This document shows, piece after piece, positions 33,436-35,106 of a stretch of DNA of 64,000 nt. A program made the position numbers and the translations under genes. The DNA comes from Candidatus Pacearchaeota archaeon (GTDB lineage: Archaea > Nanobdellota > Nanobdellia > Pacearchaeales > GW2011-AR1). Position 1 is the first letter of the stretch, and the number at the start of each line of letters is the position of its first letter. The stretch spans positions 158,207 through 222,206 of the forward strand of contig JBNLCO010000010.1 in NCBI GenBank assembly GCA_050303855.1, read 5' to 3'. Below the pieces are notes generated by a model. It was not told the origin of the DNA. It searched no databases and saw only the letters and a program-made list of their open reading frames with translations.

Positions 33436-35106
33436 TTATTTTAGTAAGTTTCTTAATCTGATTAAACCTAAACTGCATACTTCAGAATCATACCTTGTTT
33501 CTTTCATAACAGAAAAAATTACGGTGTCAGAAGCCAAAAGAGGAATGCAGGCTTTGCATAATTCAAGAGAATACTTTAGACGTTTTAACAAAGTGGTTAA
33601 CTGATACTCTGATTTTTTATCTAAGTATAATCTAGGGATTAACGCCTCAATGAATTCTTTGTCATTTGGAAATTTATCCAAATTAGAATCAAGTATGTAT
33701 TCAGATTTTATGTGAGGCAATGCTACCAAACAAACCCTTGATTCAAAATGCATTTTTTCTAAGAAATTGATAACCCGGTATTCAGACCAACTTCCAAAAG
33801 GCAAAATTCCCACATAATATTTGTAAAGATCCGGTTCCACTTCACTTTTTCTTAAAAGATCTACAAGCTCAGAGTCAGATTTCTCTTCCAAACTTTCAAA
33901 TTCATAATCTGAAGGAGGGTTATCTTCTTCTTTAGCCAAATCCTCTGAAGCGTTTGATTCTTCACGAACCTCATCTTCTTCTGTAGACTCGAAAATTTCG
34001 TTTGACATTAACTCATTTTCAATAGATGAATCTTCTTCACCTTCTACAGAGTTCTCTTTAAGACAGGGTACCTCATTGAAAATATTCTCCTTAACTTCTC
34101 CGGAATCTATGAATGGGAGAAGTTTTCTGCACAAACCAGGGTCATAACCTGACTCTCTAAGAAATCTTTCAATATCTTCGTCATCGGCATTTTTAAAATT
34201 ATCAACACAGGCTTCGAAAACTTCAGGATCATTACTAATGCTAATCTCTGAGAGAATCTCAAGGATTTCTGAGATATCATCCATCTTTGGAATAAGGACT
34301 TTGCAAAATTCCTCATCATAACCAGCCTCGTTAAGAAAAGAATTGATCTCTTCACTGCCAGCATCTTTAAATTTATCAAGACAACTTTCAAAAATATCAC
34401 GATTATTGCCAATTCTAATCTCTGAGAGAATCTCAAGGATTTCCGAAGTATCTTTCATTTTCGGAACCAGCACTTTGCAAAATTCGGCATCGCACCCAGC
34501 TTGATAAAGAAAAGATTTAATCTCTTCGTCATCGGCATCCTTGAATTTATCAAGACAAATTTCAAAAACCTCACGATCATCACTAAGGTAAATACTTGAT
34601 AGAAAATCTACTATTTTCGAGAGGTCCTTTATATTTGGAACAAGTGCTTTGCAAAATTCAGTTCCATAATTTACCTCCCCAAGAAAAGAGGTGATATCGT
34701 CATCATCGGCATCTTCGAAAATAGGTATTAAGCTAAGAAACAATTCTTTGTTATCGTCAAAATTAATATTTGAAAGAACGTCGTTTATTTCTGAAACATC
34801 ATTAATTTTCGGAACAAGTGCTTTGCAAAATTCAGTTCCATAATTTACCTCCCCAAGAAAAGAGGTGATATCGTCATCATCGGCTTCATGAAACTTTTCG
34901 ATGCAGCTTTCAAAAACTTCACGATCACGATTGTCATCTACGTCAAAATAATCACTAAGAACCTGGATAATATTAGAAGGTTCGCTTAGTTTTGAAATAG
35001 CATATACAAATAAATCGTAATCATCTTGGGAATCTTTTTCCTCCAAAAATTCAATAATTTCATCGTCATTTAAGGAGGAAATTTTTATCTTATCAGATGT
35101 ATCCAT
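33436..35106 (-). CDS. highly acidic tandem-repeat protein (about 6-7 repeats of about 57 aa, each with conserved Cys pair), unknown function
   Basis: Repeat unit F(E/D)xC(L/I)(D/E)KFKDADDEEIxSFLxxAGYDxEFCKVL(V/I)PKMxDxSEILEILSEI. Near-identical DNA copies occur at about 34630-34700 and 34810-34890. The first gene 5' of mvp on the same strand. Confidence 0.7.
   Translation of the reverse strand: MDTSDKIKISSLNDDEIIEFLEEKDSQDDYDLFVYAISKLSEPSNIIQVLSDYFDVDDNRDREVFESCIEKFHEADDDDITSFLGEVNYGTEFCKALVPKINDVSEINDVLSNINFDDNKELFLSLIPIFEDADDDDITSFLGEVNYGTEFCKALVPNIKDLSKIVDFLSSIYLSDDREVFEICLDKFKDADDEEIKSFLYQAGCDAEFCKVLVPKMKDTSEILEILSEIRIGNNRDIFESCLDKFKDAGSEEINSFLNEAGYDEEFCKVLIPKMDDISEILEILSEISISNDPEVFEACVDNFKNADDEDIERFLRESGYDPGLCRKLLPFIDSGEVKENIFNEVPCLKENSVEGEEDSSIENELMSNEIFESTEEDEVREESNASEDLAKEEDNPPSDYEFESLEEKSDSELVDLLRKSEVEPDLYKYYVGILPFGSWSEYRVINFLEKMHFESRVCLVALPHIKSEYILDSNLDKFPNDKEFIEALIPRLYLDKKSEYQLTTLLKRLKYSLELCKACIPLLASDTVIFSVMKETRYDSEVCSLGLIRLRNLLK

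Follow-up and report, generated by a model that had tools for sequence, protein, structure and literature searches.

A polyanionic helical-repeat protein encoded beside a major vault protein homologue in an archaeal genome: architecture, relatives and a possible vault connection

Here, we examined a pair of genes in a 64,000-nt stretch of DNA (the window), the host of which is archaeal. The first gene encodes an acidic repeat protein and the second, located immediately downstream, a major vault protein (MVP) homologue. The genes around the pair are mixed and unrelated (DUF481, GluR0-like channel, methyltransferase). The features of the locus, numbered by position in the window, are as follows.

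30659..30682 (-): strong hairpin and T-run terminator from the terminator scan (10-pair stem, 5 GC pairs), 17 nt past the MVP stop
30699..33302 (-): MVP homologue, 867 aa; Pfam MVP_shoulder 75.9 bits (3.5e-21), Vault_3 38.3 bits (1.5e-9)
33303..33435 (-): AT-rich spacer of 133 nt between the repeat gene and the MVP gene, with a TTTTATTTT tract at 33425-33433, just past the stop of the repeat gene
33312..33329 (-): element TAATTGTTTAATTAAAAA, matching the one before the repeat gene (17/18 identical) and stopping 9 nt short of the MVP ATG
33436..35106 (-): coding sequence of the acidic repeat protein from the ORF list, 556 aa, ATG start, stop codon 33436-33438
33439..33906 (-): near-neutral C-terminal module, aa 401-556, five predicted hairpins (ten helices; H411-554, pLDDT 82-95)
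33907..34080 (-): acidic linker, aa 343-400, net charge about -20, predicted to be disordered (pLDDT <50 at 353-398)
34081..34950 (-): five acidic double units of 58 aa (174 nt), aa 53-342, delimited by Tandem Repeats Finder and the spacing of the FCKxLxP-type motif
34636..34713 (-): near-identical DNA segment, copy 2, aa 132-157 (76/78 nt versus copy 1)
34810..34887 (-): near-identical DNA segment, copy 1, aa 74-99, EADDDDITSFLGEVNYGTEFCKALVP (76/78 nt versus copy 2)
34951..35106 (-): degenerate first double unit, aa 1-52, with four helices (H3-11, H14-23, H30-39, H43-53), placed by the register layout
35118..35135 (-): TTATTGTTTAATTATAAA, a promoter-like element that stops 11 nt short of the ATG of the repeat gene
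35256..35294 (-): hairpin (AAAACCCG...CGGGTTTT) with a T-run, a terminator read from the sequence, after a 42-aa ORF

The ORF at 30699-33302 is, judging from its Pfam and PDB matches, an MVP, as assumed in the first-pass annotation, which had correctly placed the repeat gene immediately 5′ to mvp, in the same orientation and with a 133-nt gap. Besides the two Pfam families listed above (Vault_2 scored below the threshold), this protein matches PDB chains of solved eukaryotic MVPs over residues 484-844 (E ~4e-16). The search recovered 176 homologues of it; among the 120 matches listed, identity to prokaryotic MVPs ranges from 30 to 51%, and most cover >90% of the query (range 49-100%).

The extreme negative charge that had been attributed to the repeat protein is real: with 137 D+E against 57 K+R residues, its net charge is -80 and its pI 4.15, which makes it an outlier among the window's 52 ORFs, for which the mean is +0.006 per residue. 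Because the window's proteins average near-zero net charge, a halophile-type acidic proteome was rejected as the cause of the acidity. The protein has no signal peptide. A Lys-rich loop of the MVP (aa ~160-215), considered as a counter-charge, was discarded as well, given that it varies in all MVPs and carries a net charge of +2 here.

The repeat protein had been described as 6-7 copies of a ~57-aa unit. The repeats are indeed present, with a unit of 58 aa, five copies in register and one degenerate N-terminal copy. Tandem Repeats Finder detects a period of 174 nt in the gene (2.8 copies, score 512), the repeat search of the window yields five copies spaced exactly 174 nt apart, and the motif [F/L]C[K/R]xL[V/I/L]P recurs at aa 93, 151, 209, 267 and 325, a spacing of exactly 58 aa. 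The earlier layout was incomplete in two respects: each unit comprises two ~29-aa helix-turn-helix hairpins, and five further, non-acidic hairpins form the C-terminus. Identity among the units is 33-67%. The suggestion of a recent expansion, based on two nearly identical units, holds up, the identity of the two 78-nt segments pointing to recent duplication or gene conversion. The alignment with P0002, the single full-length orthologue, spans 96% of the query, with an identity of 39% in the best BLASTP alignment and 49% in the MAFFT alignment; a second protein, P0123, is a partial orthologue. The degenerate first double unit shows good conservation with P0002, which contains at least seven motif-anchored units (~9 by eye) compared to the five in register in the window protein. 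The most similar unit pairs are found within one protein (0.60 and 0.67 in the window protein, up to 0.59 in P0002), whereas pairs across the two orthologues do not exceed 0.53. As far as can be read from these sequences, the acidic array arose by an expansion specific to the lineage, which tandem duplication or gene conversion continues to reshape, and the protein as a whole is a fast-evolving, lineage-specific polyanionic solenoid.

The AlphaFold2 model of the repeat protein, built from an input alignment of two sequences only, is an alpha-solenoid with a mean pLDDT of 80.5 and 35 helices of ~10 residues, in which 12 acidic hairpins are followed by the disordered acidic linker and then by the neutral five-hairpin C-terminal module. 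The structural neighbours of the model are helical-repeat proteins throughout, with low global TM-scores (<=0.25). According to the model, then, the protein belongs to the alpha-solenoid fold class, its tandem helical hairpins stacking up as a superhelix. The linker counterpart in P0002 is S/P/Q-rich, not acidic; the C-terminal module is 49% identical between the two proteins and includes long unchanged stretches, among them KYSLELCKAC and RLRNLL.

Profile searches against Pfam and PDB, which had been proposed at the outset, were run, and neither these databases nor NCBIfam yielded a passing sequence match for the repeat protein. Neither the window protein nor P0002 nor any of ten members of the wider family matched Pfam repeats of the HEAT, ARM, TPR, PPR, ANK and TALE types (E<=1 to 10). 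The protein does have relatives: a profile search recovered 51 proteins, and the family amounts to ~50 clusters among 1.84 billion representatives. The consensus double unit of this family of ~29-aa repeats is LKLEEKTEEEILELLKKSNYDEEVCKAAIPFLKSEENILEILEKTNYDEEVCEAGI, and a double-unit HMM seeded from an unrelated member, P0126, produced 9 matches across the window protein. No match was found in the metagenome contigs scanned with the full and C-terminal alignments, or in the scan of viral contigs. On this sequence evidence, the hairpins represent an undescribed repeat family of about 50 clusters that lacks a Pfam model. Most of its members are neutral and are encoded in bacterial loci away from MVP; charge is near neutral (within +-0.1 per residue) in all but P0001, P0002 and P0123 (below -0.11). 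Furthermore, most of the 49 other profile matches fit best at profile positions ~600-780, which correspond to the C-terminal module. From these alignments, this module is the ancestral, family-wide part, and the acidic array is known from only three sequences.

The first-pass annotation had also described two Cys per unit and named metal-binding cargo as one of the candidate roles. The count is uneven, with one Cys in unit 2 and three in unit 3. The first Cys of the supposed pair, missing in unit 2, is absent from most units of P0002 as well, and only the second is a family hallmark, found across the family in 66% of first-hairpin units. In each hairpin, this second Cys lies midway along what is predicted to be the second helix, in the hydrophobic context V/I-C-x-A-A/G-I, and looks like a core-packing residue. 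A Cys-based metal-binding or redox protein, in which paired Cys would coordinate metal and the acidic residues add capacity, would account for the 15 Cys (2.7%), a high content for the window, and for the CxxC motif (C517-K-A-C520) kept in all three acidic-subfamily sequences. Nevertheless, given the loss of the first Cys, the apparent structural role of the second and the lack of any Pfam metal-binding domain, we consider such a function highly improbable.

The signals around the gene pair bear on how the two genes are expressed. The 18-nt element upstream of the repeat gene is one version of the start-proximal motif that is generic to this genome, and at <=1 mismatch it occurs only twice in the 64 kb (0.04 expected by chance), once before each of the two genes. 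Such a private element, common to both genes and 17/18 identical, suggests co-regulation. A hairpin terminator flanks the pair at either end, and there is none in between. The one at 35256-35294, missed by the consensus scan because its loop exceeds 8 nt, isolates the repeat gene, as read from the sequence, from transcription upstream. Also consistent with linkage, the spacer is unstructured (-9.8 kcal/mol, z = +1.64 against shuffles). Against an operon speak the promoter-like motif that each gene has of its own, the T-tract after the repeat gene and the lack of a Shine-Dalgarno sequence before MVP (there is none before the repeat gene either). Co-expression, which had been judged plausible from the gene order, remains so, although it would probably be achieved by matching promoters rather than by an operon; we infer that the two genes are probably co-regulated through the shared promoter-like element. 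Two other readings of these regions were rejected: a sigma-70 operon, because the host is an archaeon and shuffled sequences had more sigma-70 sites than the real one, and a structured RNA (an analogue of vault RNA) in the spacer or upstream region, for which there was no Rfam match and the predicted fold of the spacer is less stable than that of shuffled versions.

We surveyed a further 82 distinct MVP loci from prokaryotes (85 records fetched), covering 10 kb on each side of MVP. No relative of the repeat protein was detected at any of the 82 loci by tblastn or by the unit, C-terminal and family HMMs; the gene upstream of the closest MVP among the matches listed (51% identity) encodes a 171-aa TonB_C protein, not a repeat-family relative. 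Nor did the survey reveal any conserved neighbour of prokaryotic MVP, in agreement with the literature, where prokaryotic MVP is treated only as a lone homologue (bioRxiv 10.1101/872010; PMC12962969). Among the relatives of the repeat protein, the gene next downstream of P0123 is lipoprotein-like, not MVP, and all 7 of the wider-family loci inspected lack MVP nearby. In the case of P0002, which is encoded on a 7,362-nt contig of JGI metagenome 3300075153, a large gene (at least 496 aa, running into the contig end) starts exactly 133 nt downstream. None of the comparisons run shows the repeat protein and MVP working together.

By analogy with known shell-cargo systems, the repeat protein could be a lineage-specific accessory or cargo of the vault, the C-terminal ~156-aa module of which would dock inside the MVP cage and bring the polyanionic array into the lumen, where it would serve as a lining, a counter-ion store or a nucleic-acid substitute. 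The close spacing of the two genes on one strand, the private start-proximal element, the terminators flanking the pair and the order of parts in the protein (cargo, disordered linker, C-terminal module) all fit this scenario, as does the 133-nt interval at P0002, but the 120 matches listed include no MVP fragment of the length and identity expected for the contig of P0002. The scenario is further weakened by the 82 loci without a relative, including that of the 51%-identity MVP, by the lack of any conserved MVP neighbour, by the lipoprotein-like gene after P0123 and by the C-terminal module itself, which is common to ~48 proteins, with no MVP nearby at the seven loci inspected. Moreover, no PARP, vWA, BRCT, TROVE, NACHT or WD40 Pfam domain is found in the repeat protein, even at E<=10. 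Thus, we regard a vault accessory as unlikely, and it is likewise doubtful, from sequence, that MVP is the docking partner of the repeat protein, a link to the vault nonetheless being possible. In its strongest form, which we regard as unlikely, the scenario would make the protein the earliest example of an accessory or cargo dedicated to a vault-like cage from a prokaryote (here, an archaeon); the polyanionic solenoid would be co-regulated with MVP by way of a private promoter variant and tethered by the C-terminal module to the cage interior or rim.

A broader version of the same idea is that the whole repeat family could consist of adaptors for SPFH-fold assemblies (MVP and flotillin-like proteins), with large SPFH/Band_7 proteins as partners and MVP as one such client. 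The MVP shoulder is an SPFH-like domain, and MVP adjoins the window protein; in addition, a gene for a 703-aa Band_7 protein is the next one upstream of P0002, in the same orientation, and one for a 662-aa membrane-anchored Band_7 protein adjoins P0125 divergently in two contigs. There are few SPFH genes per genome, so that finding two or three such neighbours among roughly nine contexts exceeds chance. However, this count is post hoc and comes from a small sample, there is no Band_7 gene at the P0124, P0127, P0131 and P0135 loci, and P0129, which is syntenic with P0125 (both are followed by the infC-rpmI-rplT-secG block), has no Band_7 neighbour. On balance, the adaptor scenario appears improbable.

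Alternatively, the repeat protein might be an unrelated neighbour that works elsewhere, perhaps by chaperoning basic or nucleic-acid-binding proteins or by acting as an acidic decoy for them, and that owes its place beside MVP only to the accident of a variable genomic region. The lack of conservation of the adjacency is what this alternative would predict, and the separate promoter-like motifs, the missing Shine-Dalgarno sequences, the T-tract past the stop of the repeat gene and the location of the pair in a region that mixes unrelated genes are all compatible with it. By contrast, the private 17/18 element is not easily accounted for unless the two genes are regulated together or have the same origin, and we rate an accidental neighbourhood as possible yet somewhat unlikely.

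Taken together, we favour, with a probability of roughly 0.55, the reading that the repeat protein is a cytoplasmic polyanionic alpha-solenoid that serves as a non-enzymatic binding scaffold and the gene of which is probably co-regulated with MVP. Under this proposal, we infer a division of labour along the chain, which comprises six 58-aa double units (12 acidic hairpins), a ~45-residue acidic linker predicted to be disordered and the near-neutral five-hairpin C-terminal module. The conserved C-terminal solenoid would dock on a partner, and the flexible linker would tether to it a long, rigid, negatively charged surface that might bind or sequester basic ligands (cations, polyamines or basic proteins) or mimic a polyanion. 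Any solenoid would be read as a scaffold by default, so that this assignment is weakly informative. Moreover, the shared element and the tight adjacency could mean that the protein is a specific vault component, in which case the description as a generic scaffold would be incomplete.

To our knowledge, no function has been established for vaults, and we know of no partners of prokaryotic MVP. A pair of archaeal genes that have a private promoter element in common offers a concrete and inexpensive entry to the question of vault partners. Should the MVP link fail, the repeat protein would be an ordinary lineage-specific orphan repeat protein. Regardless of vaults, the repeat family with its recent polyanionic expansion is useful for the study of repeat-protein evolution and, possibly, for protein design.

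Comparison with known systems places these features in perspective. Like VPARP/PARP4 and TEP1, the window protein would be a non-shell protein linked to MVP, although here the link amounts to genomic adjacency in one genome only. VPARP has a C-terminal MVP-interaction (INT) domain, and the ~156-aa C-terminal module of the window protein, following a flexible linker, is similarly placed; the PARP, vWA, BRCT, TROVE, NACHT and WD40 domains of VPARP and TEP1 are absent from the window protein. Encapsulin cargo proteins carry a C-terminal targeting region and are encoded just upstream of the shell gene, resembling the window locus in gene order (cargo-like, then shell-like) and in the disordered linker before the C-terminal part. 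However, the encapsulin shell has the HK97 fold, in place of which the window locus has MVP. Furthermore, the C-terminal part of the window protein is, as predicted, a folded 156-aa solenoid common to proteins unlinked to any shell, and, unlike encapsulin pairs, the two genes are probably under separate promoters.

Among sequence families, the acidic units of P0002 score 45.9 bits, summed over repeats, against the 23.8-bit cut-off of Nif11 (PF07862), which comprises Nif11-type RiPP leaders and stand-alone Nif11 proteins (PMC2887384). The best P0002 stretch spans 34 of the 48 profile positions, with the common pattern EExIKxFLxxxxxDxEFxxKL, whereas the window protein itself has no match at E<=10; in addition, Nif11 is a single small domain rather than a tandem array, and the window locus has neither a RiPP core peptide nor a modifying enzyme. 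With DUF5363 (PF17320), a family for which we know of no function, the whole window protein scores 28.0 bits against a cut-off of 25.8, a sum over repeats in which no single stretch passes the 0.01 threshold; the best one covers profile positions 17-40 (24/54), and P0123 and P0127 give weak matches to the same C-x-x-x-x-P-x-L region. Finally, in overall architecture, the window protein resembles the alpha-solenoids (HEAT/ARM, PPR, the clathrin heavy-chain repeat, LRV and designed helical repeats) but lies outside these Pfam families, from which it is set apart by its own Y-D-x-x-V-C ... P-x-L-K signature and its extreme negative charge.

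The repeat protein of the window (P0001) is a real, lineage-specific and fast-evolving polyanionic alpha-solenoid that belongs to an undescribed family of hairpin repeats. Its gene and its parts are as follows:

33436..35106, minus strand: coding sequence of the repeat protein, 556 aa, ATG start
aa 1-52: degenerate unit before the five in-register units
aa 53-342, minus-strand ORF: five 58-aa units in exact register
aa 401-556: five non-acidic hairpins after an acidic linker (the C-terminal module)

The first-pass annotation had described six to seven copies of a unit of about 57 aa; the repeats are indeed present, but the unit is of 58 aa, with five copies in register and one degenerate. 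Tandem Repeats Finder reports a period of 174 nt (score 512), a separate repeat search finds this spacing to be exact across five copies, and the motif [F/L]C[K/R]xL[V/I/L]P is found at residues 93, 151, 209, 267, and 325. Each 58-aa unit consists of two helix-turn-helix hairpins of ~29 aa, and the AlphaFold2 model, with a mean pLDDT of 80.5 from an input alignment of two sequences, contains 35 short helices and a disordered segment at residues 353-398. The extreme negative charge noted previously is borne out (137 D+E vs 57 K+R, net charge -80, pI 4.15) and, given that the mean charge over the window's 52 ORFs is +0.006 per residue, is a trait of this protein rather than of the proteome at large. 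Two more strongly acidic proteins without a Pfam match are encoded at 37363-38196(-) (277 aa, net -36) and 40365-40865(-) (166 aa, net charge -27); because the former starts 2 nt past PspA and carries a Shine-Dalgarno sequence, it is likely co-transcribed with pspA.

A word-indexed search of 5.8 billion proteins recovered the repeat protein itself and only one relative, the full-length orthologue P0002 (775 aa; JGI metagenome 3300075153), with 39% identity at 96% query coverage in BLASTP and 49% in the MAFFT alignment. An exhaustive HMMER run of the two-sequence profile against 1.84 billion representatives yielded 51 proteins. Acidity, at -0.12 to -0.14 charge per residue, is confined to P0001, P0002, and the fragment P0123. 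The remaining 48 are near neutral and 69-521 aa long; those inspected are built almost wholly from the hairpins that make up P0001, and the main match of most is to the C-terminal module. A double-unit HMM seeded with an unrelated member, P0126, converges on LKLEEKTEEEILELLKKSNYDEEVCKAAIPFLKSEENILEILEKTNYDEEVCEAGI and gives 9 matches to the repeat protein and 11 to P0002; thus, the acidic units are the same repeat. Profile searches against Pfam and PDB, as advised in the first-pass annotation, were run, and no sequence match in Pfam, NCBIfam or PDB identifies the family: DUF5363 on the repeat protein is marginal (28.0 bits vs a cut-off of 25.8, with partial matches summed), as is Nif11 on P0002 (45.9 vs 23.8), which has no match on the repeat protein.

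P0002 contains at least 7 motif-anchored units (~9 by eye) against 5 in register in the repeat protein, and its linker is S/P/Q-rich, not acidic. The highest unit-pair identities are 0.60 and 0.67 within the repeat protein and up to 0.59 within P0002, whereas no pair across the two orthologues exceeds 0.53. Furthermore, the near-identical units had been correctly located at the outset: positions 34810-34887 and 34636-34713 are identical at 76 of 78 nt. Together, the within-protein similarity and this segment indicate that duplication or gene conversion is still under way in the array. Stability lies in the C-terminal module, where long stretches such as KYSLELCKAC and RLRNLL are invariant. The proposal that each unit keeps two Cys does not apply strictly: a single Cys occurs in unit 2 and three in unit 3, most units of P0002 carry A, L or I in place of the first Cys of the pair, and the family-wide hallmark is the second Cys only (66% of first-hairpin units), in the helix context V/I-C-x-A-A/G-I. 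Metal binding via Cys pairs is not supported. The repeat protein is most defensibly regarded as a non-enzymatic binding scaffold, in which the conserved C-terminal module would act as the docking part, joined through the flexible linker to an extended surface of negative charge; cations, polyamines or basic proteins could bind there.

The gene pair and the associated signals comprise the following:

30699-33302, minus strand: major vault protein (MVP) homologue, 867 aa, 133 nt downstream of the repeat gene
30659-30682: strong terminator just past MVP
35256-35294: hairpin plus T-run terminator, upstream of the gene pair and 3' of a 42-aa ORF
genes starting at 37346, 40260, 40865, 45935, 49697, 57388, 62098, minus strand: position-fixed TTAACAATTAAA-type motif

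The 867-aa ORF is a bona fide MVP homologue: it matches MVP_shoulder (3.5e-21) and Vault_3 (1.5e-9) in Pfam, aligns with solved eukaryotic MVPs at E ~1e-16, and has 176 homologues, the 120 listed being 30-51% identical and most covering >90% of the query. The closest among the matches listed, P0004 (51% identity), belongs to a MAG deposited under the name "archaeon". As first reported, MVP lies directly 3' of the repeat gene, on the same strand, after a 133-nt gap. In ~10 genes of the window, TTAACAATTAAA, with at most 2 substitutions, starts 20-24 nt ahead of the ATG (in one case 30 nt), and the upstream gaps of these genes are mostly at least 80 nt (that of the 37346 gene is 16 nt), whereas tightly packed genes (37363-38196, 14911-16428) have GGAGG-like sequences instead. 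The motif looks like the promoter of leaderless or short-leader first genes, as opposed to Shine-Dalgarno-led internal genes. Two copies of it also occur in L001, a contig carrying the P0004 locus. The repeat gene and MVP, both lacking a Shine-Dalgarno sequence, share a private variant, T[T/A]ATTGTTTAATTA[T/A]AAA (17/18 identical between them), which ends 11 nt before the ATG of the former and 9 nt before that of the latter; at ≤1 mismatch, these are the only two sites in 64 kb, with 0.04 expected by chance. A TTTTATTTT tract follows the repeat-gene stop codon, and the 133-nt spacer shows no stable fold (z = +1.64). We read the pair as two adjacent putative transcription units with matching promoters. 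Hence the suggested co-expression stands insofar as MVP and the repeat gene are probably under common regulation in this genome; given the TTTTATTTT tract and the separate promoter-like motifs, this would more likely act through matching promoters than through an operon. An unlisted, very basic 42-aa ORF (MAKTKKRKTEKIRPQRSKEEKEEIRINRTNYLGRSKTEVTPD) lies at 35313-35441(-), preceded by TTATTAACAAAAAATTA, which by eye resembles the generic start-proximal motif.

The window is archaeal, not bacterial, judging by its gene content; it carries RNA polymerase subunit D along with archaeal-type uS13, uS4, uS11, and SecD/SecF (14911-17318, 21739-23945). An 88-nt tRNA at 17330-17417(-), with an anticodon unassigned by ARAGORN, may hold an intron, a common feature of archaeal tRNAs, and a lone 5S rRNA gene is found at 19150-19265(+), with no 16S or 23S match in 64 kb. 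The window also encodes OmpA-like, DUF481, and TelA proteins, more typical of bacteria, along with PspA and full-length MVP. Several of these belong to a same-strand run of envelope/stress-type genes at 36279-52275(-), which includes a GluR0-like ligand-gated channel, PspA, an S/T/K-rich protein with a Peptidase_S74 domain, a proteasome-ATPase-like AAA protein, an ABC transporter, TelA, two OmpA-domain proteins, and a VWA protein. A 396-aa protein encoded at 27257-28447(-), whose N-terminus resembles a signal peptide and which contains numerous short repeats (KDTVFSIDS / LDTIYNIEY), has no Pfam or NCBIfam match.

Could the repeat protein be a physical partner of the vault? The comparison covered 82 distinct MVP loci. 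Eighty of these come from species-representative genomes across many bacterial phyla, with flanks of up to 10 kb on either side unless the contig ended sooner, and five further records cover the two closest MVPs. Outside the window, neither tblastn with P0001 and P0002 nor the HMMs of the 58-aa unit, the C-terminal module, and the family double unit found any relative in these loci, and clustering of all neighbours revealed no conserved MVP neighbour, the largest cluster spanning 6 loci, all from related genomes. Upstream of the closest MVP is a gene for a 171-aa TonB_C protein; this MVP is embedded (L001/L002/L003) in a ~38-gene same-strand run of mostly 50-330-aa products with almost no Pfam matches, apart from two to TonB_C, one to PspC, and a faint one to Ank_4. 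After the P0123 fragment (L086), the next gene begins 44 nt on and is lipoprotein-like rather than MVP. MVP is absent from the retrieved loci of P0124, P0125, P0127, P0129, P0130, P0131, and P0135, which are bacterial where neighbours are informative; those of P0125 and P0129 represent a syntenic site upstream of infC-rpmI-rplT. Cutting the other way, exactly 133 nt downstream of P0002, the same gap as in the window, begins a gene whose product has 496 aa or more. The 120 listed MVP matches include no MVP fragment of the length and identity expected for that contig. A physical vault role is possible, at a fairly low probability, and conservation lends it no support.

Large Band_7/SPFH proteins (648-703 aa) stand beside two repeat-family members:

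L091, 2061-4049, minus strand
L092, 230-2176, minus strand
P0002 contig

One, of 703 aa, adjoins P0002 directly upstream, and another, membrane-anchored and of 662 aa, adjoins P0125 divergently. The MVP shoulder is itself SPFH-like, and the repeat family might instead bind SPFH-type proteins in general. Neighbours of this type occur in 2-3 of ~9 contexts, more than chance would be expected to give, but the count was made post hoc and the syntenic P0129 locus (L094/L095) has no Band_7 neighbour; we assign this alternative a low probability. What is new, then, is a solenoid repeat protein of a new repeat family, unusual in both charge and context.
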